A DNA stretch of 64,000 nt from an uncultured Gammaproteobacteria bacterium (GTDB taxonomy: Bacteria; Patescibacteriota; Microgenomatia; UBA10105; UBA927): NCBI GenBank assembly GCA_964621305.1, contig CAZUOM010000003.1:14589-78588 (forward strand), written 5' to 3'. A program made the position numbers and the translations under genes. How positions within the stretch are numbered: the stretch's first letter is position 1; each line of letters begins with the position of its first letter. The notes beneath the pieces were generated by a model. That model saw only the letters and a list, made by a program, of their open reading frames with translations. It was not told where the DNA came from and did no database searches. Below, piece after piece: positions 6,151-62,466 of the stretch.

Positions 6151-6209
6151 GTCCCTATACTACATCATCAGTTGGCGGCGACACCACTTTTTCGATACAA
6201 TGGATTTGT

Positions 6210-19549: not shown

Positions 19550-20543
19550 TGCGTTACAGAAGTACAAAAAGAGACATTCGTACCTTTTTTTTACTCGAGG
19601 AGATTTGGTACCCAAAAATGCAGACTTAGTCCATTATCCCTATTTTGATCCATTTTTCCCAACGCTGCCGCTTTTGAAACCAAAGCCTGTTGCGGTTACG
19701 GTCCATGACCTTATTCCATTGGTATTTCCAGATAAATTTCCAGCCGGATTAAGAGGTTTACTGAAATGGCAGTTGCAGCGGTTGTCTCTCTTGGGAGCCG
19801 ATCGTATCATCGCTGACTCAGCCCAGTCTGCGCAGGATATCGCGCGTTACTCTGGAGTTTCGCATGAGCGTATCGACGTGGTGCACCTTGCCCCAGGGGA
19901 AAGATTTCGAAAGATGGATAAGAAGGATAAGATGAATCAGAGGGGAATAGAACGGGTGAAGGCAAAGCACCACTTACCCGAGCACTTCATTCTCTACGTG
20001 GGAGATGTCAATTGGAACAAAAACATCCACGGAATGCTTGAAGCATTCCGAAATCTCAAAACTCAAAACTCAAAACTCAAAACTAAATTAGTTTTCGTTG
20101 GTGCCGCTTTTAAAAATAGTTTACTTGCTGAAACGAAGGATATCGACAACCATATCCATTCATTAAACGTAACTGACGATGTAATGAAACTGGGTTTTGT
20201 GCCGGATGAAGATTTACCGGCTATTTATTCGCTTGCAAGCGTTTACATCCAACCGTCGTTTTATGAAGGTTTTGGGCTGCCGGTTCTGGAGGCGATGGCA
20301 TGCGGGTGCCCAGTGGTGTGTTCGTACGTTGCCAGCCTTCGTGAGATTGGCGGGCCGGCCATTTCTATCGATCCCGACGACCCCGCCAACATCGCTTCAG
20401 GCATTTTGCGCGTGTTGTCCTTGTCTAAAGAGCAGAGAAATAAGCTGATAGGTGACCAGCGACAATGGGCAAAACAGTTTACCTGGAGGAATGTTGCGGC
20501 CCTAACCATGAAGGCCTATGAAAAAGTTTTGGCAAACAAATAG
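19467..20543 (+). CDS. GT4 (group 1) glycosyltransferase
   Basis: N-terminal MRVAIDISPL...GTGFYTRNL and C-terminal EGFGLPVLEAMACGCPVVCS (E-x7-E region) are typical of GT4 retaining glycosyltransferases. Confidence 0.75.
   Translation: MRVAIDISPLSSNHKVRGTGFYTRNLIDALQKYKKRHSYLFFTRGDLVPKNADLVHYPYFDPFFPTLPLLKPKPVAVTVHDLIPLVFPDKFPAGLRGLLKWQLQRLSLLGADRIIADSAQSAQDIARYSGVSHERIDVVHLAPGERFRKMDKKDKMNQRGIERVKAKHHLPEHFILYVGDVNWNKNIHGMLEAFRNLKTQNSKLKTKLVFVGAAFKNSLLAETKDIDNHIHSLNVTDDVMKLGFVPDEDLPAIYSLASVYIQPSFYEGFGLPVLEAMACGCPVVCSYVASLREIGGPAISIDPDDPANIASGILRVLSLSKEQRNKLIGDQRQWAKQFTWRNVAALTMKAYEKVLANK
20053..20087 (+). repeat. Heptanucleotide tandem repeat (aactcaa)x3 with degenerate flanking units inside GT4 CDS
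   Basis: atctcaa aactcaa aactcaa aactcaa aactaaa, encoding NLKTQNSKLKTK. Confidence 0.8.
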
Positions 20544-21630
20544 ACCAGTTGTGTTCTTATACATGCTTTGGTTGGCTGGTATGGTGTTCGTTGAGCGCCT
20601 AGCCCCGGCGTTATTTCTTTTGCGTGAGGAGTACGTGGGAGTTATTCCTTGGGCGAACTTTGACGGCATGCACTACGTCACCATTGGCACTGACGGCTAC
20701 CACCCGTACCAGCAAGCGTTCTTTCCCGGTTATCCACTGCTTATCCGTGCGTTTTCTGAATTATTTCCGAATATTTTAGCCGAGACAATCGCGATCGTTA
20801 TCTCTCGCATCCTATTCCTTCCGGCACTTTTGGTGTTTTACGCTTTGGCTCGAAGGGTAGTGCCGCAGCAGGCTGTCTGGGCAGTCGTTTTGCTCCTTTT
20901 GTTCCCAACGAGTTTTTTCTTTGGCGCAGCCTACACTGCCAGTCTCTACCTACTCCTTGGGGCAGGGGTGTTTCTTCTCTTGCTACACCGACAGCATCTT
21001 CTGGCTGGAATTGTTGGTGCGGCTGCAAGCGGGAGCTGGCTCTTTGGCGCGTTTCTCTTTCCGGCCGCTCTTTTGGCGTGGAAGGAGGAGGAGGAGAAGA
21101 AGAAAAATAAGGGGGACAAGAAGGATAAGAAGTGGGTATTGGCCATCTTCGTTATGCCGTTGGGACTGGTTGGGTACATGATATACCTCTGGTGGTCAAT
21201 GGGGGACCCGCTCGCATTCATCCACGTGCAGCCGTCTTTTGGTGCAGGCAGAAGTGGCGGGGAGATTATTCTTTTGCCACAGGTATTGTGGCGCTATGCC
21301 AAGATTCTCTTGACTGCATCCGCCAATACCGTTCAGTACTTTGTCGCGGGTTTTGAACTTTTGACCCTCATCTTGGCCCTGTTTCTCTTGTGGCAGGGGT
21401 ATTTGAGAAAACTGCCGCTGGCCTATCTTTTGTACTCGATGGCCATTGTTATTACCCCAACACTCACCGGTACGCTCTCATCATTCCCGCGGTACTTTCT
21501 CGCAGCATTTCCTCTTTTTTGGGTATTGGCGAATATTAGTGGAAGGACCAAAGTCGTGGTAGCATTGGTGTTTTTACTTGTGCAAGCTGTCGTTTCGAGT
21601 GCATTTTTGAGAGGGCACTTCGTTTCGTAA
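20518..21630 (+). CDS. Polytopic membrane protein, putative glycosyltransferase (mannosyltransferase-like)
   Basis: 370-aa multi-TM ORF. FDGMHYVTIGTDGYHPYQQAFFPGYPLL motif. Contains a polypurine-encoded charged loop WKEEEEKKKNKGDKKDKKW. Confidence 0.5.
   Translation: MKKFWQTNRPVVFLYMLWLAGMVFVERLAPALFLLREEYVGVIPWANFDGMHYVTIGTDGYHPYQQAFFPGYPLLIRAFSELFPNILAETIAIVISRILFLPALLVFYALARRVVPQQAVWAVVLLLLFPTSFFFGAAYTASLYLLLGAGVFLLLLHRQHLLAGIVGAAASGSWLFGAFLFPAALLAWKEEEEKKKNKGDKKDKKWVLAIFVMPLGLVGYMIYLWWSMGDPLAFIHVQPSFGAGRSGGEIILLPQVLWRYAKILLTASANTVQYFVAGFELLTLILALFLLWQGYLRKLPLAYLLYSMAIVITPTLTGTLSSFPRYFLAAFPLFWVLANISGRTKVVVALVFLLVQAVVSSAFLRGHFVS
21061..21135 (+). repeat. Polypurine (GAR) tract inside a membrane-protein CDS
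   Basis: gaaggaggaggaggagaagaagaaaaataagggggacaagaaggataagaag, encoding the low-complexity loop WKEEEEKKKNKGDKKDKKW. Generates spurious Arg-rich and Phe-rich ORFs in other frames. Confidence 0.7.
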
Positions 21631-21635: not shown

Positions 21636-22322
21636 ATGAAAACATTATCGGTCATCATGCCGGTCTATAATGAGGAAGCAACCGTTTCCGAGATACTGCG
21701 GCGGGTATTTGCTGTGAGGATTGCCGGATGGAAGAAGGAAGTCATTGTTGTGGATGATGGGTCAACAGACGGGACGAGGGCAGCCTTGAAACGGTGGGAG
21801 GGGAAAGCGATTGTTATCTTCCAGAAAAAAAATCAAGGCAAGGGGTCAGCCATAACTGCCGGGCTTTTGCGTGTTACCGGGGATATCGTGCTTATTCAGG
21901 ACGCTGACCTTGAATATAATCCGCAAGACTACCCCACACTTCTTGCGCCCTTTGACGATACACGGATACACGTGGTGTACGGATCGCGCTTCCTGGGGCC
22001 GCATCTGACTACTATGTTTGTGTATGAGGTGGGGAACAAATTCATCACTTTTGTAACGAACCTTCTGTTTAACACCAATATCACAGATGTTGAAACCGGA
22101 TACAAGGTGTTCCGACACAAGGTACTTGCGGCAATGACACTGCGGGCCAAACGATTTGATTTTGAACCGGAAGTTACGGTTAAGCTACTCAAAGCTGGCT
22201 ATCAGATATACGAAGTACCCATCTCGTACTTTGGAAGGAAGTTTTCTGAAGGGAAGAAGTTGACATGGAAAGATGGAGTGATGGCAATCTGGACGCTTCT
22301 CGTGTATCGTTTTTTCCCCTAA
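21636..22322 (+). CDS. GT2 glycosyltransferase, polyprenyl-phosphate sugar synthase-like (Dpm1/GtrB-like)
   Basis: LSVIMPVYNEEATVSEIL...VVDDGSTDGT...QKKNQGKGSAITAGL...LIQDADLEYNPQDY, a classic Dpm1/GtrB-type GT2. Confidence 0.8.
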   Translation: MKTLSVIMPVYNEEATVSEILRRVFAVRIAGWKKEVIVVDDGSTDGTRAALKRWEGKAIVIFQKKNQGKGSAITAGLLRVTGDIVLIQDADLEYNPQDYPTLLAPFDDTRIHVVYGSRFLGPHLTTMFVYEVGNKFITFVTNLLFNTNITDVETGYKVFRHKVLAAMTLRAKRFDFEPEVTVKLLKAGYQIYEVPISYFGRKFSEGKKLTWKDGVMAIWTLLVYRFFP

Positions 22323-22323: not shown

Positions 22324-23565
22324 ATGCACTGGGAGTCACTTTTATCCAACAAACTGCTGCGCGCTGGTGGCGTGGTGTATGCAGGATCGATGGTGGCCAA
22401 TGTGGCTGCCTGGGGCTACCATGTCCTGGTTGGTCGTATTTTGGGCGCAGAGGCCTATGGAGAGCTGGCTGCTCTCTTGTCACTGTTTTACCTGGTCAAT
22501 GTTCCTTCTGTTGTGCTCCAGACGATTCTCGTCAAGTTCTTTTCGGTTCTTAAGGCTCGTGGTGATACCGGCGGAGCGAGGCACTTATTTGAACGCGTAA
22601 CTATTTTTTTGATTGCGGCTCTTGTCGTAGTCGGGGTGATCGCATCCTTCTTGGTGCCTACGCTGGCGTCATTTCTCCATATTGATAACCGCTGGTATTT
22701 CGTCTTTCTCTACCTCATTTTTGCAACGTTCATCGTATCGGTGGTGAACACCAGTCTCCTCCAGGGGTACCAGCGATTTGTGGCCGTCAGCATATTTACC
22801 AACCTGGGGGTGATTCTGCGACTGATAGTCAGTATCCCTGCGGCGCTTTTCGGGGTTGGTTGGACCTTGGTTGCCAACATCGCATCAAACGTAACCAGCT
22901 ACCTCCTCATGTTTGTTCCGATGCAATTTCTCTTTCGCCAAAAACCGGTGGCGGTTGCCATCACAAAGGAGCAGGCGCTGGGTTTTAGTTTATCTGCTCT
23001 TTTGGCAACAGTCGGTGTTGTCGCCCTGTTTTCCGTCGATGTCATACTCGTCAAACACTACTTTTTGCCCTTTGAGGCCGGCATATATAGTGCACTTTCG
23101 ATACTTGGTAAAGTGGTCTATTACGCATCGTTTGCGGTAACGTTTGTTCTCTATCCGGTCTTGGCGGAGCGCAAAGAGCAACGCCGAGACCATAGGCGGA
23201 TTGTGTTCGTTGGACTTTCGTTTATTGGAGCCACAGGTTTGGCCGTTACCGCTTTGTACACGCGTTTCCCGTCCTGGGTGATTATTCCATTTGGGGCTGC
23301 GTATAAAGATGCAGTACCGTACTTAGGAAGTTTTGCGTTGTTCATTTCATTTTTTTCTTTGGCCAACATCCTCGTGACGATACTTTTGGCCCTGGATGCA
23401 CGGCGCGTGTGGGTTATGAGCGTTGCCGCAGCCACCACCCAGGCCACGTTGATCGTGCTGTCTCATACGAGCTTACAGAGGGTCATTGCAATCAACACGG
23501 CTGTTTCGGCGGCCCTGGCCGCTCTACTTCTGCTATACTACCTCTATGTTATCCGGCGCACGTAA
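22324..23565 (+). CDS. MOP-superfamily oligosaccharide flippase-like membrane protein (Wzx-like)
   Basis: 413-aa ORF with about 12 TM segments. N-terminal L...G.VVYAGSMVANVAAWGYHVLVGRILGAEAYGELAA pattern is typical of polysaccharide biosynthesis (PF01943-like) flippases. Confidence 0.6.
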   Translation: MHWESLLSNKLLRAGGVVYAGSMVANVAAWGYHVLVGRILGAEAYGELAALLSLFYLVNVPSVVLQTILVKFFSVLKARGDTGGARHLFERVTIFLIAALVVVGVIASFLVPTLASFLHIDNRWYFVFLYLIFATFIVSVVNTSLLQGYQRFVAVSIFTNLGVILRLIVSIPAALFGVGWTLVANIASNVTSYLLMFVPMQFLFRQKPVAVAITKEQALGFSLSALLATVGVVALFSVDVILVKHYFLPFEAGIYSALSILGKVVYYASFAVTFVLYPVLAERKEQRRDHRRIVFVGLSFIGATGLAVTALYTRFPSWVIIPFGAAYKDAVPYLGSFALFISFFSLANILVTILLALDARRVWVMSVAAATTQATLIVLSHTSLQRVIAINTAVSAALAALLLLYYLYVIRRT

Positions 23566-24346
23566 GCTCCTTTCTCTTATCATTCCAGTCTACAATCAGG
23601 AGAAAACCATCGCGAAAAACCTTCGCAATATTGTTGCGGCACTCGAGCAGCTAACGCATCCATACGAAATTATTGTCGTCGTCGACGGAGCAACCGACAA
23701 AAGCATGGAGGAAGCAAAAAAGGTATCCTCACAACATCTATCGGTTGTTGGGTATAAAACGAATAAAGGAAAGGGCTACGCGGTGCGGTTTGGGATGGCA
23801 AAAAGTCACGGTGACATCATCGGATTTCTTGATTCTGGCGGGGATATCGATGAGACGGGGTTAACAATGATGTTGGAACATTTTCGTTGGTACAATGCCG
23901 ACATCATCGTGGGGAGTAAACGACATCCAGTCTCAAAAGTTTACTACCCACTCGGTCGCAAGATTCTCTCTCTCGGATACCAACTTATTGTGCGGCTTCT
24001 TTTTGGCCTTAACATCCGCGACACCCAGGTGGGGTTCAAGCTCTACCGTCGGGATGTGTTGGAGGATGTACTCCCGCGACTTTTGGTGAAGCAGTTTGCC
24101 TTTGATATCGAGATTTTGGCTGTCGCGCATCAATTGGGGTACCGGCGGATCTTTGAGGCGCCGGTAGAGCTTGATTTCACCGGCGCATCCAGTATCACCT
24201 CTACTAGTTTTTGGAAAGTAGTTTTACACACGCTGTGGGATACGTTGGCCGTGTTTTATAGGTTGAAGATTTTATGCTACTACGATAACGCAAACAAACG
24301 GAAATGGCGTTTCGACCCTGAACTTAATTTTCGCGTAAACGTCTGA
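23546..24346 (+). CDS. GT2 family glycosyltransferase
   Basis: LSLIIPVYNQEKTIAKNL...IVVVDGATDKS...KGKGYAV...GFLDSGGDID. Internal ATG at 23546 is preferred over the ORF-track start at 23486, which overlaps the previous gene. Confidence 0.7.
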   Translation: MLSGARKLLSLIIPVYNQEKTIAKNLRNIVAALEQLTHPYEIIVVVDGATDKSMEEAKKVSSQHLSVVGYKTNKGKGYAVRFGMAKSHGDIIGFLDSGGDIDETGLTMMLEHFRWYNADIIVGSKRHPVSKVYYPLGRKILSLGYQLIVRLLFGLNIRDTQVGFKLYRRDVLEDVLPRLLVKQFAFDIEILAVAHQLGYRRIFEAPVELDFTGASSITSTSFWKVVLHTLWDTLAVFYRLKILCYYDNANKRKWRFDPELNFRVNV

Positions 24347-24352: not shown

Positions 24353-25462
24353 ATGCGAATTCTTGTTTTTAACTGGCGGGATATAAAAAATCCGCAGGCT
24401 GGTGGAGCAGAGCTCCTCACCCACGAGCTTGCAAAACGATGGAAGAAACATGGACACACAGTAACCTTATTTACCTCAGGATTTTCCGGTGCAAAGGCTG
24501 ACGATGCTATCGATGGAGTCACGGTTATTCGGCGGGGGAGATGGTGGAGTGTGCACGGATTGGCTTTTTTCTATTATCTGTTGCACTTCCGAAGCTTGGT
24601 CGATGTGGTGGTGGATGAAGTCCACTGGTATCCTTTTTTTAGCGTACTGTATGCGCGACACAAGACAGTTCTTTTGGCCTGCGAAGTTGCCAACCGATTA
24701 TTTTTTCAGCTTTTGCCATACCCACTTGCGCTTCTTGGACGATGGTTGGAGAAGATCTACCTTTTTATCTATCGGAGCACACCGGTTATGGCAATCTCCC
24801 CATCGACCAAGCGCGATCTTGTCGCCGAGGGCATAGATGCAGGTCAGATTACCATCTTGCCCATGGGAGTTACTGTGCCAAAGACCGCTTCTAGGTTGAA
24901 AAAAAGTATGCACCCGACGATTCTCTTCCTCGGTCGTCTGCATCCACTAAAGGGCGCACGTGATGCCATCGATGCGTTTGCGTTGATTCGAAAAAAGCTC
25001 CCTTCTGCAAAACTGTGGATTGTTGGAGAGGGTCAAAGTCGCTACAAAAAACAGCTCGATACACAGATTCACTCACTCGCACTCGCATCTTCGGTAACAT
25101 TTTTTGGACACGTATCCGAGCGAAGAAAATTTGAGCTCTTAGCCGCGGGACACCTCTTATTGGTACCGTCGGTACACGAGGGGTGGGGGTTGGTGGTGGC
25201 TGAAGCAGCGCACGTGGGGACTCCGGCGGTTGGCTACCGCACAGCCGGTATTGCCGATGTCATCGTTGATGGAAAGACCGGAGTTCTTGTGCCGCCCGGA
25301 AACATAGAGGAATTGGCGTTAGAAACACTGAAACTATGGGAAGATCGTGCCAGATACAAACGGTACCAGACAGCTGGAAAAAAACGAGCGTTATCTATGA
25401 ACTGGGGCAATACGGCGCTGGTTGCACTTTCCGTATTGGTCAAGGCGCATGAGAAAAACTAA
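24353..25462 (+). CDS. GT4 (group 1) glycosyltransferase
   Basis: MRILVFNWRDIKNPQAGGAE...PSVHEGWGLVVAEAAHVGTPAV, a GT4 signature. Confidence 0.8.
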   Translation: MRILVFNWRDIKNPQAGGAELLTHELAKRWKKHGHTVTLFTSGFSGAKADDAIDGVTVIRRGRWWSVHGLAFFYYLLHFRSLVDVVVDEVHWYPFFSVLYARHKTVLLACEVANRLFFQLLPYPLALLGRWLEKIYLFIYRSTPVMAISPSTKRDLVAEGIDAGQITILPMGVTVPKTASRLKKSMHPTILFLGRLHPLKGARDAIDAFALIRKKLPSAKLWIVGEGQSRYKKQLDTQIHSLALASSVTFFGHVSERRKFELLAAGHLLLVPSVHEGWGLVVAEAAHVGTPAVGYRTAGIADVIVDGKTGVLVPPGNIEELALETLKLWEDRARYKRYQTAGKKRALSMNWGNTALVALSVLVKAHEKN

Positions 25463-26468
25463 CCTTCCAACCATAAGTGTCGTGATCGCTACATATAACT
25501 CGTCGCGAACAATCGGGCGCTGCCTCAAAAGCATCCGGCAGCAGCACTACCCGCAGGAGAAGGTCGAGATTATTATCACCGACGGCGCTTCCACCGATAC
25601 GACGAAAGAGATTGCTTTAGGCCACATCGTGCGATGGATTGACGTCCCTTCTGCCCGTCAAAACGCCGAGTACAACAAGGCGACGGGTATTGCGGCAGCA
25701 AGCCATGAGATTATCGCGATGATTGATCACGACAATGTATTGCCACACGTCAGGTGGCTTCAGAATATGGTGGCGCCGCTTGCCAAGCATAAAGAGGTCG
25801 TCGGTGTCGAGACACTTCGGTATCACTATGATCCGCGGGTGTCGCTTCTCGATAGATACTTTTCGCTTTTTGGCGCTGGGGATCCATTGGTGTGGTATAT
25901 GGGAAAAGCCGATAGACTTTCGTACATCTATGACAGCTACGCGCTTAAAGGCGCGGCGAAGGATTGCGGCGCGTACTATTTAGTACAGTTTCGTCCTGAT
26001 ACCATGACGACCATAGGAGCGAATGGGTTCCTAGTTAGAAGAGACGTGCTTATGAAAAACGCTAATGTGGCGCCGCGCAAGTATTTTGATATGGATGTAA
26101 ATGTTGACTTGATCAAAAAGGGATTTAACACATATGCATTTGTGAAAGATTCGATTTTGCACCTTACAGGTTATGGCAGCGTTTCGAATTTTTTGAAACG
26201 CAGATTGTTGTTTTTGACCCAATATCGATTTGGGAGGGAAGTGGCGCGTGTGCAAAAATTACGCCGATACGGAAAGTTATCAGGGAAAGACAAGTGGCAT
26301 CTTCTCTGGGCGATTATCGCGTGTGCAACGCTCGTTGTTCCGCTGTATGATAGTATTCGCGGGTGGAGAAAAGTGAAGGACAGGGCGTGGTTTCTCCATC
26401 CGGTATTGTGTCTAAGTTTCGTTGCGATATATGGTCTTGCAGTTGGAAAAAAACTTTTGGCGAAATAG
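25449..26468 (+). CDS. GT2 family glycosyltransferase
   Basis: ISVVIATYNSSRTIGRCLKSIRQQHY...IIITDGASTDTT...IDHDN. An alternative start at 25422 is in the ORF track. Confidence 0.65.
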   Translation: MRKTNLPTISVVIATYNSSRTIGRCLKSIRQQHYPQEKVEIIITDGASTDTTKEIALGHIVRWIDVPSARQNAEYNKATGIAAASHEIIAMIDHDNVLPHVRWLQNMVAPLAKHKEVVGVETLRYHYDPRVSLLDRYFSLFGAGDPLVWYMGKADRLSYIYDSYALKGAAKDCGAYYLVQFRPDTMTTIGANGFLVRRDVLMKNANVAPRKYFDMDVNVDLIKKGFNTYAFVKDSILHLTGYGSVSNFLKRRLLFLTQYRFGREVARVQKLRRYGKLSGKDKWHLLWAIIACATLVVPLYDSIRGWRKVKDRAWFLHPVLCLSFVAIYGLAVGKKLLAK

Positions 26469-27354
26469 GCGAGTTTTGGTGACGGGCGCGGGCGGTTTTG
26501 TCGGATCGCACCTGAGAGAAACACTTGTGGCACTTCGTGCAAACGTCATGACACTTGCTCGAAAGAATGACGGAGTCGATATTACCCGTAGGGAGGATGT
26601 TGCCCCGATGTTTGAAAAAAATCCGTCCGTGGTGTTTCACCTAGCTGGTGAGGCTCTGGTAGAGCGGGGGCAGAAGGCTCCCTACGAGACATTCCGTACA
26701 AACGTGATGGCCACGCTTAACGTTCTGGAACTCTGCCGCTTGACTAAGGTCGCAAGGATCATCATCGCTTCCACGGCTCACGTCTACGGCGCCGGACAAC
26801 CGCCGTATACCGAAGACGATCCGCCACGCCCTTCTCGGCCGTATGAGACGAGTAAAACCGCAACGGATCTCTTGGCCCAGTCATATGCCGACAGTTTTCG
26901 TTTACCCGTGGTTATCCCTAGGTTTGTCAACATTTATGGCCCGGGCGATGCAAATATGACAAGGCTTATCCCAAAAACCATGTACCATATCCTTCGTGGC
27001 AAGCCCCTGCCGATGTGGGGCGGGAAGGCAAAAAGAGAGTATATCTACATTGATGATGCGATCAATGCCTATCTTCTCCTTGCCACCATGTTAGAGGATA
27101 AGTTGGAGAAAAATCGCATCTTCAATTTCGGGTCGGGCAGACCAGTGACGGTTGTAGAACTTGTCCGGCGCATTGGGAAAGTTGTAGGGCATTCCGTGCG
27201 GATCAAGCACATCCGAAAAGAGAGAGAAGGGGAGATAGCCGAGCAGTATGTCTCCTGGGAGAAGGCCCGGCGTGTGTTGGGGTGGAGGCCGCGGATATCT
27301 CTTGATGAGGGGCTACAGCGCACCGTTGCGTGGTATCGCAGGAACCCTCTATAA
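26422..27354 (+). CDS. NAD-dependent NDP-sugar epimerase/dehydratase (SDR family)
   Basis: Rossmann motif VLVTGAGGFVGSHL and catalytic YETSK (YxxxK). About 310 aa, extended SDR. Confidence 0.75.
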   Translation: MRYMVLQLEKNFWRNRRVLVTGAGGFVGSHLRETLVALRANVMTLARKNDGVDITRREDVAPMFEKNPSVVFHLAGEALVERGQKAPYETFRTNVMATLNVLELCRLTKVARIIIASTAHVYGAGQPPYTEDDPPRPSRPYETSKTATDLLAQSYADSFRLPVVIPRFVNIYGPGDANMTRLIPKTMYHILRGKPLPMWGGKAKREYIYIDDAINAYLLLATMLEDKLEKNRIFNFGSGRPVTVVELVRRIGKVVGHSVRIKHIRKEREGEIAEQYVSWEKARRVLGWRPRISLDEGLQRTVAWYRRNPL

Positions 27355-28544
27355 TGCGCCGTATGATCCCGCTTATTAAATCGACGTTTTACCATGAAAC
27401 CCAGACCAAACGAAAGCTGTGTCAATTCATACAATCGGCTAAAAAGTTGAGCATAGGTGACCAGTGCCGACGATTTGAAGAAAACTTTGCCAAATACCAA
27501 GGACGAGCCCACTGTGTTTTTGTCAATAGCGGCAGCAGCGCCAATCTTGCTTTGATTCAAGCGCTCCTCAACCTTGGTAGACTTAAAAAAGGTGATAGCG
27601 TTGGGTTTTCCTCACTCACCTGGTCCACAAACGTGATGCCGCTTATTCAATTGGGTCTTATGCCAATACCTATTGATGTGGAACTTGATACATTAAATGT
27701 ATCAAGTAAATCGCTTCTTGCGGCAACAAAAAAACACACGCCGAAGGCAGTGTTCCTTACCAACCTCTTGGGATTTTGCGATGACATTGAGACAATTAGC
27801 GACATTTGTAAGTCCAAAGGTATTCTCTTTTTGGAGGACAATTGCGAGGCCTTAGGCTCTGTGTATAAAAATAAAAAGCTCGGGAATTGGGGACTAGCAA
27901 GTACATTTTCCTTTTACGTGGGACACCACATGTCTACCGTAGAGGGCGGTGCCATCTGTACCAACAATGGTCAGCTTGAAACAATGCTCCAGCTTGTGCG
28001 AGCACACGGATGGGACCGAAATTTAACCGAGCAAAAGCAGCTAAAAATTCGGGTACGTCATGGCGTGAATGAAACATTTTATTCACGCTATACTTTTTAT
28101 GATTTGGGCTATAACTTGCGCGTGAATGAGATACAAGGGTTTCTTGGCAATACGCAACTTGGCTATATTGATGAGATTGTAAAAAAAAGAGAGAAAAATT
28201 TTTTCTCCATGACCAGTCGCATCATGCGAAGAGATGACCTCTACTTTCCGCTGCGCTACAATCACATTGATCGTGTTTCAAATTTTGCGGTTCCGCTGGT
28301 ATGCCGCTCGCAGAAGATTCGAGATGCACTGGCGGCACGCTGTGACGGGAAGGTTGAGATCCGACCCGTTGTGGGCGGAGACATGACAAGCCAGCCGTTT
28401 TTCAAAAAGTACATGGGGAAGCACATCGACACCGCCTGTCCGAATGCCCGGCTTATCCACGAGCAGGGGTTGTACTTCGGCAACAACCCTGAATTGACCA
28501 AAAAAGAGATGGACACGATCGTTCACGTATTTACCGACCTATGA
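27330..28544 (+). CDS. DegT/DnrJ/EryC1-family PLP enzyme with His replacing the Schiff-base Lys; candidate NDP-4-keto-6-deoxyhexose 3-dehydratase (ColD/E1-like)
   Basis: Family motifs FEENFAKYQG...VNSGSSANLALIQALL, KKGDSV, LEDNCEALGS, then FSFYVGHHMSTVEGG where canonical aminotransferases have SFH..K. A His at this position is characteristic of ColD/E1 3-dehydratases. Confidence 0.6.
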   Translation: MVSQEPSIMRRMIPLIKSTFYHETQTKRKLCQFIQSAKKLSIGDQCRRFEENFAKYQGRAHCVFVNSGSSANLALIQALLNLGRLKKGDSVGFSSLTWSTNVMPLIQLGLMPIPIDVELDTLNVSSKSLLAATKKHTPKAVFLTNLLGFCDDIETISDICKSKGILFLEDNCEALGSVYKNKKLGNWGLASTFSFYVGHHMSTVEGGAICTNNGQLETMLQLVRAHGWDRNLTEQKQLKIRVRHGVNETFYSRYTFYDLGYNLRVNEIQGFLGNTQLGYIDEIVKKREKNFFSMTSRIMRRDDLYFPLRYNHIDRVSNFAVPLVCRSQKIRDALAARCDGKVEIRPVVGGDMTSQPFFKKYMGKHIDTACPNARLIHEQGLYFGNNPELTKKEMDTIVHVFTDL

Positions 28545-29521
28545 GTGCTTTTTGGAAAAGTAAAAAGGTCTTAGTCACCGGAGGCACCGGGTTTATCGGT
28601 AGCCACGTCGTGGAAAAACTGGTCGAAATGAGAGCAAAGGTAACAGTTCTTGACAATTTACAAAACGGCAAAATTAAAAACATCTCATCGTTGAAGGATC
28701 GCGTTCGATTCATCAAGGGGAATTGCGCGGATATAAAAGACGCGTTAGCTGCATGTAAAAATCAGGAGGTGGTTATGAATCTTGCTGCGCGCGTCGGAGG
28801 CATCGAATATAACCGAACGCACCAGGCGACGATGCTCCGCGACAACCTCACCATTGCCACGACGATGATGGAGGCGGCAAGACGCGCCGGTGTCGAGCGA
28901 TATCTCGTGGTCTCCTCTGCCTGTGTATATCCACGGACCTGTTCGATGCCCACACCAGAGTCCGAGGGATTTGTGGATGAGCCGGAACCAACCAACGGCG
29001 GATATGGCTGGGCCAAGCGTATGGCGGAAAAACTGGGCATGTATTATGCAGAGGAGTTTGGGATGAAGGTAGCAATTGTCCGGCCATACAACGCGTATGG
29101 CCCACGAGACCACTTCGACCCTGCTGTTTCGCATGTCATTGCCGCGCTTATCAAGCGAGTTTTTGATGGAGAAAATCCGTTGGTGGTATGGGGAAGCGGT
29201 AAGCAGACGAGGGCCTTCCTCTATGTTGACGATTTGGCTCGAGGAATGATCGAAGCAATTGAGCACTATCCAAAGCCGGATCCGGTTAATCTTGGTACGG
29301 ACGAGGAAGTAACTATTAGAGAGCTTGTAGAAAAGATTGTGCGGTTAAGCGGAAAATCGCCCACGGTAGTTTTTGACACCACCAAACCGGACGGTAGCCC
29401 CAGAAGGAATAGCGATAACACGAAAGCGAAAGAAAATATCGGTTTTGTAGCCAAGACAAGACTCGATGAGGGGTTGGAAAAAACCATCATGTGGTACCAG
29501 AAGACTATCAAAAGGGTGTAG
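28541..29521 (+). CDS. GDP-L-fucose synthase-like epimerase/reductase (Fcl/ColC-like SDR)
   Basis: KVLVTGGTGFIGSHV, YGWAKRMAE (YxxxK), YNAYGPRDHFDPAVSHVIAALIKRV closely matches the Fcl PTNLYGP.DNF....SHVIPALLRR region. Confidence 0.75.
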   Translation: MSAFWKSKKVLVTGGTGFIGSHVVEKLVEMRAKVTVLDNLQNGKIKNISSLKDRVRFIKGNCADIKDALAACKNQEVVMNLAARVGGIEYNRTHQATMLRDNLTIATTMMEAARRAGVERYLVVSSACVYPRTCSMPTPESEGFVDEPEPTNGGYGWAKRMAEKLGMYYAEEFGMKVAIVRPYNAYGPRDHFDPAVSHVIAALIKRVFDGENPLVVWGSGKQTRAFLYVDDLARGMIEAIEHYPKPDPVNLGTDEEVTIRELVEKIVRLSGKSPTVVFDTTKPDGSPRRNSDNTKAKENIGFVAKTRLDEGLEKTIMWYQKTIKRV

Positions 29522-29599: not shown

Positions 29600-29929
29600 C
29601 TAAAATTTGACTTTAACATTAATTATAAAAATCGCCCACATGAGTAAATATAACAGAGTGCCAAGATTTTCGGCTATATCGTGTCTGGAAAAAAGAACGG
29701 CAAGGATTGAGAGGAAGAGAAAAAAAATGGCAATAACCAAATAAGCCCTGGTTCTAAATTTGAGGATAATGGTTGCAAGAATTATCATGATAAAAATCTT
29801 ATTCCTAGTCGTAAAGACAAGGCTTGAGTAGGGAAGAATAGACAAAAGGTCCACAACGAAATAGCTCAAGGTAAAAGCAAGTAATTTCCCGCTGTTTTGA
29901 CTGATAAACTCTTTAATCTTCTGCCACAT
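29600..29929 (-). CDS. Small membrane protein (GtrA-like?)
   Basis: 109 aa, 3-4 hydrophobic segments. Start overlaps the stop of the upstream large membrane protein. Family uncertain. Confidence 0.3.
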   Translation of the reverse strand: MWQKIKEFISQNSGKLLAFTLSYFVVDLLSILPYSSLVFTTRNKIFIMIILATIILKFRTRAYLVIAIFFLFLSILAVLFSRHDIAENLGTLLYLLMWAIFIINVKVKF

Positions 29930-32900
29930 ATTTTCTTTTTCTCAGAAAAACTAGTAACAGGACGAATGTTGGCAGGGTCACAGACGTAATCAGAAGACCT
30001 ATATAGAAAAAGCTCTGTGGAGCATAGACAATCCTCATTTCAAAATCTCCTGTATTTTGGACTAGCCAGGCATTCGAGTAACCGTCAAGACTAAAATGGA
30101 CAGATGGGTCAACTTGACTGAAAAATTTTCCCGGTAAGATTTTGGCCAAAAAGGTCGATTTAACATCTTCCTCCACGAAGTAAGCTTTCCAACCGTTATT
30201 GAAAGACTGCAAGAAGTTAAGAATAAAACCGGAGTCTGCCCCGCTGACCTTTAGTTTGTATTCGGTAGGCGAGACCATTTCACTGGTAATTTGTGGGGTG
30301 GACAATTTTTCCCCCGCGAGTTCCTTGGTAAAAAAAACTTTGGGACTATAAGTTCTATAGATCCTGGGGCTACTGACCTCAAAATACTTTTCATCTATAA
30401 AGCTGTTAAAACCTTGATATTCAAACCCTAGATAACCTTCCCTCGCCAAAAAATTAGGGTCAATGGTAAAGCTAAAGGTTCTCGGAACCCTGGAAGTTTT
30501 TAAGTCTTTTTTAACTCTGTCTGCTTTTCCTAAAATATTCGGTCTATCATTGTCCTGAAAGATAATTAAGCGGGGGTTGGTATTTTTGCTAGCCCGATAT
30601 TCGAAAGAAACTGCGTACGAATCCGAATATGAGTAATCATTAATTTTTAGCCTGCTGCTCTCGTTTTTCGAAATATCAATAAGCTCCCCAGGAGGTGGTT
30701 CTAATAGATTCACGGGCTCGGGATATATAAGCTCAACTCGATGTGTACCTTCTGCTAATGATATCTGGCGCCTGTTACTAACTTTTTGTCCATTAAGATA
30801 TAGAGAAACTGGTTCTGTAACTTGTTCTACAATTTCCAGCCGGTAAATTCCCGGCTCGCTTATGACGACCAAATACCTTTTTTTCGTTTCTTCCTGTGTT
30901 ACCCAGACTTGTTTCTCAAGAACTGAAACCCCGTCGTTTATAAACCCAAAAAGCTGGTTAAAAGCATCGGGGGCTAAGTTGTATTGGTTCTCTACTGCCG
31001 AAAGAGACCTCTTGTGCATCGTCAGATAGCCCAAAATTTTTAGCCCATAGGCATTCTTGTCTGATAAATTAAGATTCGAAAACTGGGACATGGCGTCTTC
31101 CAGATTCTTTTGATAGCGAGAAAGACTATCCTCTATTAACCCGGCTGTGAGCTCTCTCTCTTTTGGATTTTGGCTTCCGGCTCTTTCTGTTAGAAGCGCC
31201 GCTTCCCCCAATCTTTTGCTGGCAATACCAAGGTTGGCGTCGATTCTCCGGGCCGGGAGATCTTCAACTTCCTTAAGAACACCAGCCTCTCTCTTGTCAA
31301 TAAAGCTGTAGAGAAGAGAACCGGGCAAAAAGTTAATATAGGGAAGAGATAACTCTTCAACGAATTGCATATATTCTCCTTGTTTGCAATATACACAAGT
31401 TGCCTCAATTCCCAAGGCGTCGGAATAAATAAGAATTTTTCCTACGTCTTTTCCTTCTGTGTCCAAGGAGCTGACAAGGTGCTTACCAGACCCGCTGATT
31501 GCCTTAAACGTCTCCTCTGTAGGCTGCTTATCAGATTGAATGTAGGAAAAAGTCCTTACCGTACCAACTTGGGCCAGATCATAGATGGCTTTGTCTAGGC
31601 CATATAGTCTCCAAGCGCCCTCTTCCCTTTCCAAGAATACTCCCCTAAAGCTTTTTAAGTTCTCCTCCCAAAACAAGGCGTCTTGGCTTTTATTTATTTT
31701 ATTGTTGTACAAGATATCGTCTCTCCAGAGAACCTTCTTTACCCCCGACAGTTTTACGAAATATATAAAATCGTTTTCGTCCCCCCTCTCAATTGCTTTG
31801 TACAGAGCGTCGACTAATTTCTCCCTTTTGGTGTCGTTGGCCAAAAACGATTTGGTGGTGGAAATCCTGGGAAGAAGATCTAAACTCCAATAACCCCATT
31901 CGTAGCTGTCGGAGTTGAACTGGGAATCCATGGGTGGGATCATAAGTATTCTTGCTTCCTTGTCTTTAAGGTTATCGATGTAGTTTGACATATCCCTGAC
32001 ATAGGAGGGAACTGTTACTTTTGTGCTAAATGGCGGATTCCAGTCAAAAAATCTGTTGGAAAAATACGGGTAGTGATATGAAAGAATAAAAACTATCGAT
32101 AAGACTCCAGCAACAATTTTTTTCTTACCGGAAGCAATGAATCTCTGAATCAAAAAATTCAAGAAAAATCCTGTCAGGAGAACTGCTGGAAACCAGGCGG
32201 CGGGAGCAAACTTGTAAAAAGCGGTCCTGAATATGGCAAATCCAGGAAGATACTTAATAAGAAAAACATAGATAAAACCGAACGGAGGATGTGAACCTGC
32301 CGTAAAGACCAATCCGACCAGGAAAAGAAGCAGAAGAAAGAAAACGACCTCCCTCTTTTGGTTTTCTTTACTTGCGAAATAAGACCACATTCCGACCAAA
32401 ACGAGGAGAGTGGGAATAAAGCTGGCCATAATAAGGATGGGGTTTCCCATAAAGGGCTGTGAGTAAGGATGGTGGCCGCTATACCAATCAGGAATTCCTT
32501 GCAGCCTGAAAAGGTTTATAAGACTTGAATACTGACTAACATTCTCTTCCCACCGAAGCGCCCCCAATATTCCTCCCATGGACGAGAGCTCCGATTTATA
32601 AGTGTTGAAAAATAAGTAAGATTGGGGAAAAACCCAATAGGCATTAGTGACCAAAAAGGTAAATACAAAAGTTAAGCCAGTTACGGCCGGCCGTAAAATA
32701 CCTTTTAAGCCATATTTGTATATAGCGGTAAACGCCAAGTATGCAAAAGCCACAAGAACAGCCAAAAGGACCGAGCCATAGAGGGGGGCGGAACCTCCGC
32801 CATTTAAAAAGAAAAAAAGAAAAGAAAAAAAGATTGCTCCCTTCAAAATAGAATAGTCCGTCTTAAGAGTTTTATATGTAATTAAAATTGCAAGAGGAAG

Positions 32901-33368
32901 GGCTGCATAAAGGGAAAATTTTGCCCTCTCGCCTATAAACCAGCCCTGCAAGATAAAAAAGTTGTAAACATAGAAGGTGCTAGAAAATATTCTCAATATC
33001 CAATATTTTTTTTCTGGAAAGAAGTTGCGAACAAAAATATACATGGATATCACCATAACGAAAAACCAGAGAACAAAGGAAAATCTTTGGGCGATAGAAA
33101 GGGAACCTGTCAGATAGTTGCCCAGAACTTCGGGTAGTTGGTTGACGAGGAAACCTTTATTGATAGCCCAATCGACACCAAAACCAATAGTTGGATTCCA
33201 AGAATAAAAAAGACTTTTAAGGTGGGACATCGAAAGCAATCTAAATCCAGAGTCGTGCCCCAAAACAACTTCTCCTCCTTTAAACCAGAGAAGTGGTGTA
33301 AGAGACAACAAGAAAATAAATAAAATTTCGAGTGTTTTTGTATTTAAAAAATTTATCCTAAATTTCAT
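29913..33368 (-). CDS. Large polytopic membrane protein (1151 aa) with extracytoplasmic C-terminal domain; putative GT-C glycosyltransferase
   Basis: About 500-aa N-terminal multi-TM region homologous to 43634..45232 (for example IKYLPGFAIFRTAFYKF versus EHFPGFVMFRDPTKFYV). Long C-terminal soluble domain. AT-rich codon usage. Confidence 0.7.
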   Translation of the reverse strand: MKFRINFLNTKTLEILFIFLLSLTPLLWFKGGEVVLGHDSGFRLLSMSHLKSLFYSWNPTIGFGVDWAINKGFLVNQLPEVLGNYLTGSLSIAQRFSFVLWFFVMVISMYIFVRNFFPEKKYWILRIFSSTFYVYNFFILQGWFIGERAKFSLYAALPLAILITYKTLKTDYSILKGAIFFSFLFFFLNGGGSAPLYGSVLLAVLVAFAYLAFTAIYKYGLKGILRPAVTGLTFVFTFLVTNAYWVFPQSYLFFNTYKSELSSMGGILGALRWEENVSQYSSLINLFRLQGIPDWYSGHHPYSQPFMGNPILIMASFIPTLLVLVGMWSYFASKENQKREVVFFLLLLFLVGLVFTAGSHPPFGFIYVFLIKYLPGFAIFRTAFYKFAPAAWFPAVLLTGFFLNFLIQRFIASGKKKIVAGVLSIVFILSYHYPYFSNRFFDWNPPFSTKVTVPSYVRDMSNYIDNLKDKEARILMIPPMDSQFNSDSYEWGYWSLDLLPRISTTKSFLANDTKREKLVDALYKAIERGDENDFIYFVKLSGVKKVLWRDDILYNNKINKSQDALFWEENLKSFRGVFLEREEGAWRLYGLDKAIYDLAQVGTVRTFSYIQSDKQPTEETFKAISGSGKHLVSSLDTEGKDVGKILIYSDALGIEATCVYCKQGEYMQFVEELSLPYINFLPGSLLYSFIDKREAGVLKEVEDLPARRIDANLGIASKRLGEAALLTERAGSQNPKERELTAGLIEDSLSRYQKNLEDAMSQFSNLNLSDKNAYGLKILGYLTMHKRSLSAVENQYNLAPDAFNQLFGFINDGVSVLEKQVWVTQEETKKRYLVVISEPGIYRLEIVEQVTEPVSLYLNGQKVSNRRQISLAEGTHRVELIYPEPVNLLEPPPGELIDISKNESSRLKINDYSYSDSYAVSFEYRASKNTNPRLIIFQDNDRPNILGKADRVKKDLKTSRVPRTFSFTIDPNFLAREGYLGFEYQGFNSFIDEKYFEVSSPRIYRTYSPKVFFTKELAGEKLSTPQITSEMVSPTEYKLKVSGADSGFILNFLQSFNNGWKAYFVEEDVKSTFLAKILPGKFFSQVDPSVHFSLDGYSNAWLVQNTGDFEMRIVYAPQSFFYIGLLITSVTLPTFVLLLVFLRKRKYVAED

Positions 33369-33408
33369 AATTACTTCTTAACGAATAATTAACCCCTACA
33401 ATAATTTT

Positions 33409-35064
33409 TTATTGTTTTCTCCATGTCCCCACTTTCCCTAACCTTACTCTTGTCTCGGAGGTAATATCTTCTAATGTTTTCGTTTGGCCATCGTAGAAAA
33501 AGGCATAAACATTCTCCGGTTCAAGAATATTTTCTTTTACTGTCTCCCTCATTTCCTCAAAATCCCAAAAATAACCAAAGCCAGCCTCACCTACCTCTCT
33601 ATATCCTTGCTCTGTCATTCCCCACAAAAAATTATCTACCAAAAGTTCTTTAGGAATAATCCCAGTATCGTTGTACCAAACCATTAGTGTATATCCTGGT
33701 CCTTGTTGTAGGGGAAGAGGAAGATTTTCTATATAGAAGCTCTTATTTCCTGTAATATAAAAAATATTTTTGCTACCAAGTGTAGGATAGTTCTTCTTTA
33801 TTTGGGATAAAATCGCTTTTCTGTCGCCTGCTAAAATTACTTGTCTTGCAATCTCTGCCCTAATAATACTAGCGTGGTGAAATAAAAAAATTAGAAATAC
33901 AAATAACCCCATTATTTTTAATAATCCCGCTTTTTGAGAAATCCATCTAATAACCGAGGCCAGGATAATACCGGCACCTGCCGAGGCAATATAATAGTAA
34001 CGGGATTCAAGATAGGTAAAAGTGCGATCTAAAACTATGTAAGGAAGAAAACTTAGAAAAACTAAAGCAACGGCAAGCAAAACAATTTTAGCATCTTCAC
34101 TTTTTCTATAAAGGAAGAGAAGAGTCAAGAGTAAAGAAGCTGAAATGAAAATCGAAAGAAGGTCAGCTGTTATTGTCTGTGATACTAATCCAATAATGGG
34201 ATTGCCTTCAAGGAACGGGTACTGGATTTTAGTTATTTCGCTAGCCCAAGAAGAAAGAGTTAAGGGGGGAATAAAAACTTGAGAAAAACTCGTAGTTGGA
34301 TAAAGGATCAGACGAACAGTAATGGTTTTTAAAAAATTATCACCACCGGCTACAAAAACTCCCACCTGCTCCTTTTGAGAAAAAAGTTCAAAAAGTCGGA
34401 AGAGAATAAGTCCCAAACCATAGACAAGCAGTGATAGATGTATCTTAACAGCTCGAAGAACGTTTGCTTTTTTAAAGATGATGTACATGAGGGGTAGAAA
34501 TAGAAAAAGAAAAAGGCCTATCTCTTTAAACCAGAAAGAAATGATAGTAAACAAAAATGAAAAATACAAAAACCTCTTTTTATCATTTTTACAATAGATA
34601 AAATAAGAAATAATAGCCAAAAGAATAAATGTTGTGGCTGGAAGCGTTCCGGTTGAAGTACCAAACCATGTAACAGGTTGGTGTGAAACACTATTTAGAG
34701 AAAAAAATAAGGCAGGGATCAATGCAATCAGACGATTTGTAAATATTTTTTTGGCTAGAGTAAATACTAAAATCGCATTTAAAAAATGGATCATAATTGA
34801 AAAGATTACCAGTGGAACGATATTAAATCTTGATATTTTAAAAAGAGGAAGGCTAATAAACCGTGTTAAAATCCGTCCCTCGCCAAAAAAAATCTGTAAA
34901 GGTGTAAAACCACCAGTAATGTGCTGCTCTATCCCCTCAACCATCATGTGGCCTAAACCTTGCCATTCATCTTGTTGATAAAAGGTTCTTGGAAGATCCT
35001 GGAAGGTTCCAATTATGGCAAAAAAAATTATTAGGGTGGGTAGAATTAGAAAAAACCGCTTCAT
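33409..35064 (-). CDS. Polytopic membrane protein, putative GT-C glycosyltransferase
   Basis: 551-aa ORF with about 12 hydrophobic segments and ATGA overlap with the downstream gene. No specific family recognised. Confidence 0.55.
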   Translation of the reverse strand: MKRFFLILPTLIIFFAIIGTFQDLPRTFYQQDEWQGLGHMMVEGIEQHITGGFTPLQIFFGEGRILTRFISLPLFKISRFNIVPLVIFSIMIHFLNAILVFTLAKKIFTNRLIALIPALFFSLNSVSHQPVTWFGTSTGTLPATTFILLAIISYFIYCKNDKKRFLYFSFLFTIISFWFKEIGLFLFLFLPLMYIIFKKANVLRAVKIHLSLLVYGLGLILFRLFELFSQKEQVGVFVAGGDNFLKTITVRLILYPTTSFSQVFIPPLTLSSWASEITKIQYPFLEGNPIIGLVSQTITADLLSIFISASLLLTLLFLYRKSEDAKIVLLAVALVFLSFLPYIVLDRTFTYLESRYYYIASAGAGIILASVIRWISQKAGLLKIMGLFVFLIFLFHHASIIRAEIARQVILAGDRKAILSQIKKNYPTLGSKNIFYITGNKSFYIENLPLPLQQGPGYTLMVWYNDTGIIPKELLVDNFLWGMTEQGYREVGEAGFGYFWDFEEMRETVKENILEPENVYAFFYDGQTKTLEDITSETRVRLGKVGTWRKQ

Positions 35065-36317: not shown

Positions 36318-36336
36318 AAAATAACTGCCTCAAATA

Positions 36337-37359: not shown

Positions 37360-37428
37360 AACTTTCTAGTATTGTATACCGATAAGATGAAGCATTAAAG
37401 CTTTCTAGACATAAAGTTTTTCGTCATT

Positions 37429-38112
37429 TCAAAAATAAAGCTCTTTTATCAGGGAGAACAGAAATTTTATCCCCTCGGTCGTCTTAAGCTTTGACTCACC
37501 CCAGGCTCTTGCTTTCTCCCGACTGGGAATCTCTAATACTTTAAGACCATACCTCAAAGCCTTAACAACCATTTCCTGTTCAGACCTAAAATCATTGAAT
37601 TTTAATCCTAGCTTAAGCGCTTCTGATTTTTTTATGGCCCGGAAGCTATAAAGTATGTCTGTCAGATTTGTACCATATCGCCTGTTAACTAAGGCGACCA
37701 AAAGATCGCTGCCCGCAGAACGAACTATCCCGCCTAAGTTAATATCCATATCATAACTTCCTCCAGTTCTTCTCGAGGCCGTAACCAAATCGGCTCTTCC
37801 TTGTTTAATCGGGTTTACAAATTTTGGGATGTCTTTCTCGTCGTGTGAGCCGTCCGCATCAAAAAATACAACAATGTCCCCTTTGGCTTTTTTGATACCT
37901 ATCCTTAAAGCCGCTCCTCTGCCTTTTTTATTATCCAAAAAAAATCTGGCGCCTAGTTTTTCAGAAATTTCTTTTGTCCCGTCGTTAGAATGTCCATCGA
38001 TAACCACTATCTCATCACCATATCTTTTTATTGACTTTAAAATCTTTTCAATTCCCTGCCCTTCGCCTTTAGTCAAAACTACAAGACTTACTTTTTGTTC
38101 TACTTTTTTCAT
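37429..38112 (-). CDS. GT2 glycosyltransferase, Dpm1/GtrB-like polyprenyl-phosphate sugar synthase
   Basis: VSLVVLTKGEGQGIEKIL...IVVIDGHSNDGT...KKGRGAALRIG...VFFDADGSHD. Confidence 0.75.
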   Translation of the reverse strand: MKKVEQKVSLVVLTKGEGQGIEKILKSIKRYGDEIVVIDGHSNDGTKEISEKLGARFFLDNKKGRGAALRIGIKKAKGDIVVFFDADGSHDEKDIPKFVNPIKQGRADLVTASRRTGGSYDMDINLGGIVRSAGSDLLVALVNRRYGTNLTDILYSFRAIKKSEALKLGLKFNDFRSEQEMVVKALRYGLKVLEIPSREKARAWGESKLKTTEGIKFLFSLIKELYF

Positions 38113-41317: not shown

Positions 41318-41430
41318 AATAGATCGATAAAAACATCGATGATTTTTTGGATTTCCCTGCCGGTCAATTCCGGATTATTTCCAATATACAACCCCTGTCC
41401 GCGAACAAGTCTTGCATCGGGAACCTTGTC

Positions 41431-42216: not shown

Positions 42217-42218
42217 TG

Positions 42219-62447: not shown

Positions 62448-62466
62448 ATTTTGGTATGCTGGATCT

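Follow-up and report, generated by a model that had tools for sequence, protein, structure and literature searches.

In a 64,000-nucleotide stretch of contig CAZUOM010000003.1 (assembly GCA_964621305.1), hereafter the window, we observed three contiguous genes on the forward strand. They code for an extended short-chain dehydrogenase/reductase (SDR1), a protein with the DegT/aspartate-aminotransferase fold, and a second extended SDR (SDR2) related to guanosine diphosphate (GDP)-fucose synthase (Fcl) and ColC (Table 1). The stop codon of SDR1 overlaps the in-frame ATG 27354 of the second gene in a TAATG junction (27352-27356), the stop codon of the latter overlaps the SDR2 start in an ATGA junction (28541-28544), and the start region of SDR1 overlaps a preceding gene for a GT2 family glycosyltransferase. 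Because of these overlapping junctions, together with the SDR1/GT2 overlap, the three genes constitute the 3' end of a single operon, and their tight packing indicates co-translation. A terminator scan found none on the + strand after SDR2; we infer the end of the operon from the convergent gene at 29600-29929. We consider it probable that this triad performs the late steps in the synthesis of a nucleoside diphosphate (NDP)-linked 3,6-dideoxyhexose, which would be supplied to the glycosyltransferases and the flippase encoded just upstream.

The DegT gene lies in an open reading frame (ORF) that spans at most 27330-28544 on the + strand (404 aa). It most likely begins either at ATG 27354, which lies in the TAATG overlap and yields the 396-aa product of the NCBI call, or at ATG 27363, which yields a 393-aa product matching the homologues. 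A phmmer search of the Protein Data Bank (PDB) recovered GDP-4-keto-6-deoxy-D-mannose 3-dehydratase (ColD; 2gms, 1.5e-56, 195 bits) and its mutants as the best matches, followed by the cytidine diphosphate (CDP)-sugar 3-dehydrase E1 (3bcx, 4e-43, 151 bits). All of the top seven matches, including a further putative one, are 3-dehydratases, and aminotransferases begin at 1e-29. The protein is 32% identical to ColD and 31% identical to E1, and its best NCBIfam model is RfbH (220 bits against a cut-off of 423). In the PDB alignments its FYVGHH motif faces FYSHH of ColD, such that the first His, which is His188 when numbered from ATG 27363, falls in the column of ColD His188. We confirmed the corresponding peptide FSFYVGHHMSTVEGG in the translation, with the codon of the first His at 27924-27926. 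The ColD column is fixed by the mutant PDB entries 3b8x (H188N, SNH), 2r0t (H188K, SKH) and 3gr9 (S187N/H188K, NKH), and E1 displays AHH (PAHH) where the window protein has GHH. In a MAFFT alignment of 39 sequences, this column holds Lys in every aminotransferase-type relative, as recovered in our locus scan, and His in every 3-dehydratase-type one. The VGHH motif is present in 116 of the best 120 homologues, which is the sample, taken separately for each of the three proteins, to which all motif counts given here refer. The replacement of Lys by His is the defining difference of the 3-dehydratases (PMC8987622); both the fold and the catalytic His of the NDP-hexose 3-dehydratase class (ColD/E1/SpnQ) are thus found in the window protein, as an earlier note made from the sequence had claimed in placing a His, and no Lys, at the Schiff-base position.

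Within this class, a four-Cys [2Fe-2S] motif is present in E1 and SpnQ and absent from ColD (PMC8987622). Of the E1 motif C-X57-C-X1-C-X7-C, the window protein retains the first Cys only, as does ColD, reading C-R-L-I against C-C-C-C. The cysteines C251, C253 and C261 of E1 face Cys-free sequence: the E1 stretch CYCAPGCDNTC lies opposite NLTEQKQLKIRV, and the E1 stretch RDCYCAPGCDNTCKK opposite DRNLTEQKQLKIRV. Likewise, the 45 residues after the RAHGWDRN anchor are free of Cys in every homologue that has this anchor (113/113). Scans of the 64-kb window found no gene of the ferredoxin-reductase type or for E3 (AscD/RfbI). Given that three of the [2Fe-2S] cysteines of E1 are missing, we therefore assign the DegT protein to the ColD type, that is, as a predicted cluster-free 3-dehydratase dependent on pyridoxamine 5'-phosphate (PMP) and glutamate, with no need for an E3 reductase. 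It accordingly shows the cysteine-free character of the ColD subtype and has neither the [2Fe-2S] motif nor the E3 partner of the E1 (RfbH/AscC) subtype. The equivalents of ColD Arg219 and Arg331 (numbering checked against the PDB chain), which we take to bind the pyrophosphate, are kept in the window dehydratase, ColD and E1 alike, and hence do not help in choosing between GDP and CDP.

The best PDB matches of SDR2 are GDP-fucose synthase (GFS; 7ll6, 3e-53), the E. coli GFS (6e-46) and GDP-mannose 3,5-epimerase (GME; 1.5e-42), with entries of the UDP-glucose 4-epimerase type ranking below these. Its best NCBIfam model is GDPFucSynFcl (NF047922), at 219 bits against a cut-off of 500, as compared to 449 bits for the Gmd-linked partner in the related locus L015. 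Alignment with the E. coli Fcl sequence from NC_000913 reveals equivalents of all five Fcl residues Ser107, Cys109, Tyr136, Lys140 and His179; in the numbering of SDR2 they include Cys128 (in SSACVYP, 28913-28933), Tyr155-x3-Lys and His198, and the motifs are kept in 115/120 homologues. The blocks YNAYGPRDHF...SHVIAALIKRV, on which the earlier note had based its comparison with GDP-fucose synthase, are indeed present and align with NLYGPHDNF...SHVIPALLRRF of E. coli Fcl; its placement of the protein with this group, and not with the UDP-sugar 4-epimerases, likewise holds. The cofactor site differs: the columns of Fcl Arg12 and Arg36, presumably the binders of the NADPH 2'-phosphate in GFS structures, are Thr and Leu in SDR2, and an extra segment of ~20 residues carries VLDNL at residues 36-40, which we predict to be an Asp-containing β2 end typical of NAD(H) binders. 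Thus, the Ser-Tyr-Lys triad and the Cys/His acid-base pair of the Fcl/ColC family are found in an extended SDR that has neither the NADPH arginines nor a score reaching the equivalog cut-off. SDR2 hence belongs to the Fcl/ColC family and carries the residues for epimerization and redox chemistry, with a different cofactor site; it may act as an NADH-dependent epimerase/reductase or, like GME, as an epimerase that keeps its NAD+ bound.

SDR1 has candidate starts at TTG 26422, ATG 26431 and TTG 26443, of which the last (MEKNFW...) is homologue-like and may be the true one. Its scores against NCBIfam models fall well below the cut-offs (dTDP-glucose dehydratase, 159 bits against 365; CDP-glucose dehydratase, 148 against 278; gmd, 46.6 against 415), and its family profile recovered only generic SDRs from the PDB, to which no function could be assigned (4zrm, 168 bits; dTDP-glucose dehydratases, 146-160; Rmd, 136; CDP-glucose dehydratase, 133). 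It displays the motifs STAHVYG (26770-26790) and YETSK (26842-26856) and a β2 end reading TLAR. In the PDB alignment its T-A-H lies opposite T-D-E of the dTDP-glucose dehydratases; ST[AVS]HVYG is found in 106/120 homologues, with Gln replacing His in 12/120 and the motif absent in 2/120, YETSK is nearly invariant, and the β2-end Arg is invariant, which suggests NADP(H)-type binding. Among the compared enzymes SDR1 is nearest (34-35% identity) to the SSDKAYG-type RfbG-like SDRs of related loci, which come after a cytidylyltransferase-like gene and whose Asp-Lys is the signature of CDP-glucose 4,6-dehydratases. The residues preceding VYG in the 4,6-dehydratases (Thr-Asp-Glu in RmlB, Ser/Thr-Asp-Lys in RfbG, Thr-Ser-Glu in Gmd) are hence not those of SDR1. 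We predict that it descends from a dehydratase-like SDR, no longer has the dehydration pair, keeps Thr/Tyr/Lys, and is no 4,6-dehydratase; as to what it does, the most economical guess is that of a 4-ketoreductase. The SDR epimerase/dehydratase of the earlier note is therefore neither Gmd-like nor the 4,6-dehydratase of the pathway, given the gmd score and TAH in place of TDE or SDK.

The entry into the pathway was sought by Pfam and NCBIfam scans of the ORFs of at least 150 aa, all except a few overlapping or antisense ones, and by tblastn of RmlA, GalF, ManC, RfbF-like, RmlB, Gmd and RfbG-like queries against the window. Neither approach found a nucleotidyltransferase, a Gmd or a competent 4,6-dehydratase in the 64 kb, and therefore the three genes would represent late steps only, with the entry encoded elsewhere. 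The only other SDRs, at 45-47.6 kb, are a UDP-xylose-synthase-like protein and GalE. The former, SDR3 (45366-46307), was considered as the missing 4,6-dehydratase and rejected, as it is of the UDP-xylose-synthase type (STSEVYG...YWGNVNP) and accompanies GalE in another cluster.

The remainder of the operon codes for glycosyltransferases, a GT87-like membrane protein and a flippase-like protein (Table 1), and the whole block in the order GT4, GT87-like, GT2, flippase-like, GT2, GT4, GT2, SDR1, dehydratase and SDR2 is syntenic in the related loci L087, L088 and L089. The 21-kb public contig SBBN01000033.1 (GCA_005239695.1) falls inside the window.

Table 1. Genes of the operon that ends in the predicted dideoxyhexose triad
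Gene product	Coordinates	Strand	Remarks
GT4	19467-20543	+	upstream operon part, Pfam
GT87-like membrane protein	20518-21630	+	upstream operon part, Pfam
GT2	21636-22322	+	upstream operon part, Pfam
Flippase-like protein	22324-23565	+	upstream operon part, Pfam
GT2	23486-24346	+	upstream operon part, Pfam
GT4	24353-25462	+	upstream operon part, Pfam
GT2	25422-26468	+	upstream operon part, Pfam
SDR1, extended SDR	26422-27354	+	310-aa ORF, 303-310 aa by start; Pfam Epimerase 6e-54
ColD-type NDP-4-keto-6-deoxyhexose 3-dehydratase (DegT fold, PMP-dependent, predicted)	27354-28544	+	393-396 aa; Pfam DegT_DnrJ_EryC1 (PF01041), 8e-65, residues 29-400
SDR2, Fcl/ColC-family NDP-4-keto-sugar epimerase/reductase (predicted)	28541-29521	+	326 aa; Pfam Epimerase 9e-60

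Homologues number in the thousands at E <= 1e-20, the top 120 being 68-100% identical, and belong overwhelmingly to Patescibacteria (Microgenomates, Gottesmanbacteria, Levybacteria and others); a literature search found nothing relevant on Patescibacteria with colitose or CDP-glucose dehydratase. Forty dehydratase sequences were placed in a neighbour-joining tree and annotated with their gene neighbours. The outgroup is formed by E1-type proteins with four Cys and linkage to RfbF/RfbG, and the next branch by canonical ColD-like genes adjoining Gmd and Fcl. The basal members of the clade that includes the window protein (L109, L015/16, L101 and L103-105) also have Gmd and/or canonical Fcl adjoining, that is, the Gmd+Fcl (GDP-colitose) context is basal in this clade. 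The crown subclade that includes the window has SDR1, SDR2 and SDRs resembling the CDP-tyvelose-2-epimerase (TyvE) as neighbours, and Gmd or ManC was found within 10 kb of none of its members. An RfbF-like gene (TIGR02623, 281 bits against a cut-off of 300) and an RfbG-like gene (SSDKAYG) lie 6-10 kb off in L003, L005, L006, L087 and L108. The TyvE-like SDRs (best PDB matches 9rl0/1orr, 6e-38) are encoded at most ~4 kb from the crown dehydratase gene, several directly downstream of the dehydratase or SDR2, and one type retains the W-W-F that constitutes the CDP-binding residues of TyvE (PMC7851689). An Fcl-family gene adjoining the dehydratase or within ~3 kb of it recurs throughout the clade. 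RfbF/RfbG-like and TyvE-like genes accompany the nearest relatives of the window dehydratase, which makes CDP a possible nucleotide, and this neighbourhood pattern suggests that the lineage of the window uses a CDP-glucose-derived substrate.

Other DegT genes were encountered in the related loci. In L003 (4558-9961), a related metagenomic contig, the ColD-like gene is directly preceded by an intein-interrupted DegT gene (898 aa, with Intein_splicing and LAGLIDADG_3), just before which come split transketolase N and C genes; this combination of a split transketolase and DegT hints at a branched-chain sugar pathway. Two DegT relatives with 24-26% identity, in L027 (10001-11086, adjoining a Gmd gene) and L043 (2443-3279), have His at the Schiff-base column (AHN and AHI), and are possible further His-type lineages.

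We envisage the pathway as follows; the folds, the pattern of catalytic residues, the lack of the Fe-S motif, the operon structure and the synteny are observed, whereas the chemistry of each step, their order, the nucleotide and the product are proposed. An NDP-4-keto-6-deoxyhexose made elsewhere in the genome would form a Schiff base with PMP on the dehydratase, whereupon His188 would take the C4' proton and the 3-OH would be expelled. Hydrolysis of the enamine would release the 4-keto-3,6-dideoxy sugar and pyridoxal 5'-phosphate (PLP), which glutamate would recharge to PMP, in the manner of the ColD route that operates without an iron-sulfur cluster or an E3 reductase. SDR2, by means of the Fcl Cys/His acid-base and Tyr/Lys redox residues, would then epimerize C5 and reduce C4, generating an L-series 3,6-dideoxyhexose of the colitose or ascarylose type. 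SDR1 might catalyze an NADPH-dependent 4-reduction, either as a D-series branch or as the reductase of the pathway, should SDR2 be an NAD-bound epimerase only. The product would be used by the adjacent GT2 and GT4 enzymes, the flippase and the many GT-C-type membrane proteins. In terms of the earlier note, which had suggested a colitose-like dideoxyhexose, the class of sugar is retained, but the neighbourhoods of the closest relatives point to entry from CDP-glucose and not GDP-mannose, and the product may be of the ascarylose/paratose type or another 3,6-dideoxyhexose instead of GDP-colitose. Going further, we tentatively raise the possibility that in a large patescibacterial lineage the ColD-type dehydratase moved from the GDP-mannose to the CDP-glucose pathway, where it replaced the E1/E3 pair of the classical route to CDP-3,6-dideoxyhexoses and joined an NAD-type Fcl-like enzyme and an SDR with a T-x-H active site. 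The resulting sugar, an ascarylose-type one, CDP-colitose or the undescribed L-lyxo isomer, would be an L-series 3,6-dideoxyhexose linked to CDP and destined for the surface glycans of these ultra-small bacteria.

Several observations weigh against these proposals. The gmd-colD-fcl contexts at L015, L016, L101 and L109 involve basal members of the very same clade (48-61% identical), and GDP is the classical nucleotide of the Fcl family, so that the nucleotide may yet be GDP. At L008-L013 neither SDR1 nor SDR2 is found within 10 kb of the dehydratase gene, and the entry enzymes sought in the window were not found there. The role given to SDR1 is a guess, as its profile matched no specific characterized relative. 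SDR2, devoid of the Fcl NADPH arginines, may not reduce at all and instead epimerize in a redox-neutral manner. Moreover, its orthologues in L087 (9188-10162) and L088 (11178-12149) have Val where Fcl has its catalytic Cys109 (SSAVVYP), a substitution indicating that epimerase activity is not shared by all members and may have been lost in part of the family.

The alternative that survives best, which we nevertheless regard as rather unlikely, is the canonical GDP-L-colitose pathway of E. coli O55/O111, with Gmd and ManC encoded elsewhere, the DegT protein acting as ColD on GDP-4-keto-6-deoxy-D-mannose, SDR2 as ColC, and SDR1 as an unrelated accessory. ColD is indeed the best PDB match of the dehydratase, by 195 bits against 151 for E1, and similarly lacks the Fe-S site; the characterized members of the Fcl family, to which SDR2 belongs, use GDP-sugars; and the basal clade members at L015/L016, L101 and L109 adjoin Gmd and Fcl-like genes. 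However, the identity to ColD is about the same as that to E1. Gmd and ManC were found neither in the 64-kb window nor within 10 kb of the crown-subclade relatives, five of which have RfbF/RfbG-like genes and several TyvE-like ones. SDR2 scores less than half as many bits on the Fcl model as the L015 partner and differs in its cofactor motif, and SDR1, which would be superfluous in canonical colitose clusters, is tightly kept beside the dehydratase.

We deem it improbable that SDR1 is the missing 4,6-dehydratase, with His taking over from the usual Glu/Lys as the base, making the triad a self-contained module from NDP-hexose to 3,6-dideoxyhexose. Its top NCBIfam matches are to the dTDP- and CDP-glucose 4,6-dehydratases (159 and 148 bits), some homologues are named CDP-glucose 4,6-dehydratase by the Joint Genome Institute (JGI), the position of the base is occupied by His in nearly all homologues, and Thr/Tyr/Lys are kept. 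Yet every score is far under the family cut-off, and the replacement of the acidic Asp by Ala, Val or Ser and of His by Gln in 12/120 homologues is a poor fit to an essential acid/base pair. The β2-end Arg suggests an exchangeable NADP(H) and not the tightly bound NAD+ of the dehydratases, and the SDR1-bearing loci L005, L006, L087 and L108 have a separate SSDKAYG-type RfbG-like gene. We find it scarcely credible that an amino-deoxy sugar is the product of the cluster, with the DegT protein acting as an ordinary sugar aminotransferase: the fold and the annotation of homologues as 'DegT/DnrJ/EryC1/StrS family aminotransferase' would allow it, but the Schiff-base column holds His, in the window protein as in 116/120 homologues, where true aminotransferase relatives have Lys, and the mutant structures 2r0t and 3gr9 presumably reflect that ColD requires the H188K change to work as an aminotransferase.

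Beyond the genes of Table 1, the window contains further glycan-related and other genes. A second, convergent glycan block on the - strand (29913-43391) codes for proteins of 1151 aa and 551 aa without Pfam matches, a GT4, two GT2, two S-adenosylmethionine (SAM) methyltransferases and an 847-aa F5/8 type C protein. Its G+C content of 0.35-0.42, against 0.46-0.50 for the operon at 6-30 kb, may reflect separate acquisition. At least nine large membrane proteins (447-786 aa) with weak PMT_2, PMT, GT87, YfhO or PTPS_related matches, mostly in tandem, are encoded at 570-15480, 17897-19549 and 53816-55213, and apparently constitute an unusually dense array of GT-C-type glycosyltransferases. At 47570-49245 a 184-aa ORF with an N-terminal GT4 domain only lies upstream of, and overlaps, a full-length 374-aa GT4 gene, and the two may have arisen by splitting or duplication of a glycosyltransferase gene. 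Five consecutive proteins with dockerin and/or cohesin domains, one also with FG-GAP, are encoded at 57663-63827; the run is broken by an AbiEii-type toxin gene (59585-60424) and its upstream 218-aa partner without a Pfam match.

3,6-Dideoxyhexoses are rare sugars of strong antigenicity that have been described chiefly in enterobacterial O-antigens and nematode ascarosides. A conserved operon for a predicted 3,6-dideoxyhexose that is widespread in Patescibacteria thus offers a concrete way into the surface-glycan chemistry of these episymbionts, about which next to nothing is known. Its interest lies in this wide distribution, in the non-canonical partner enzymes, and in the possibility that ColD chemistry has been carried over into a CDP pathway. 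Were the CDP proposal true, glutamate-driven ColD chemistry could replace the oxygen-sensitive two-protein E1/E3 radical deoxygenation in CDP pathways, which would be useful for the enzymatic synthesis of dideoxy sugars, and SDR1 would define an uncharacterized SDR subfamily with a T-x-H active site.

Among characterized systems, ColD of E. coli O55 (WbdK) shares with the window dehydratase the fold, the HH at the same columns, the absence of the [2Fe-2S] motif and an Fcl-family partner gene immediately downstream. It differs (~32% identity) in having Ser187 where Gly precedes the catalytic His in the window protein; further, the window dehydratase has no gmd or manC nearby, RfbF/RfbG-like and TyvE-like genes occur in linkage with its closest relatives, and its partners are the divergent NAD-type Fcl relative SDR2 and the additional conserved SDR1. 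E1 (RfbH/AscC/DdhC; CDP-6-deoxy-L-threo-D-glycero-4-hexulose 3-dehydrase) has the same fold and the same His, furnishes the best NCBIfam model, and likely resembles the relatives in its type of neighbourhood, with cytidylyltransferase, CDP-glucose dehydratase-like and tyvelose-epimerase-like genes; in contrast to it, the window protein (~31% identity) is devoid of three of the four cluster cysteines, and no E3 gene was seen in the window.

With respect to the partner enzymes, SDR2 resembles Fcl/GFS and ColC in being an extended SDR with the Ser/Tyr/Lys triad and the Cys109/His179 epimerization pair, and its gene is translationally coupled to that of the 3-dehydratase, like colC to colD. It is, however, only 35% identical to E. 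coli Fcl, with Arg12/Arg36 replaced by Thr/Leu, and its ~20-residue insert with VLDNL resembles the NAD+-bound epimerases GalE and GME, unlike Fcl. The nearest kin of SDR1, RfbG/AscB (CDP-D-glucose 4,6-dehydratase; 1rkx, 1wvg), is likewise an extended SDR, whose N-terminal extension aligns from residue 2-3 and in which Thr/Tyr/Lys are kept; the Asp-Lys pair of its SDK is Ala-His in SDR1, which in addition has an NADP(H)-type motif, and therefore dehydration by SDR1 is not expected. Thus, what we present is a recognizable deoxysugar module whose set of partners departs from the textbook one.

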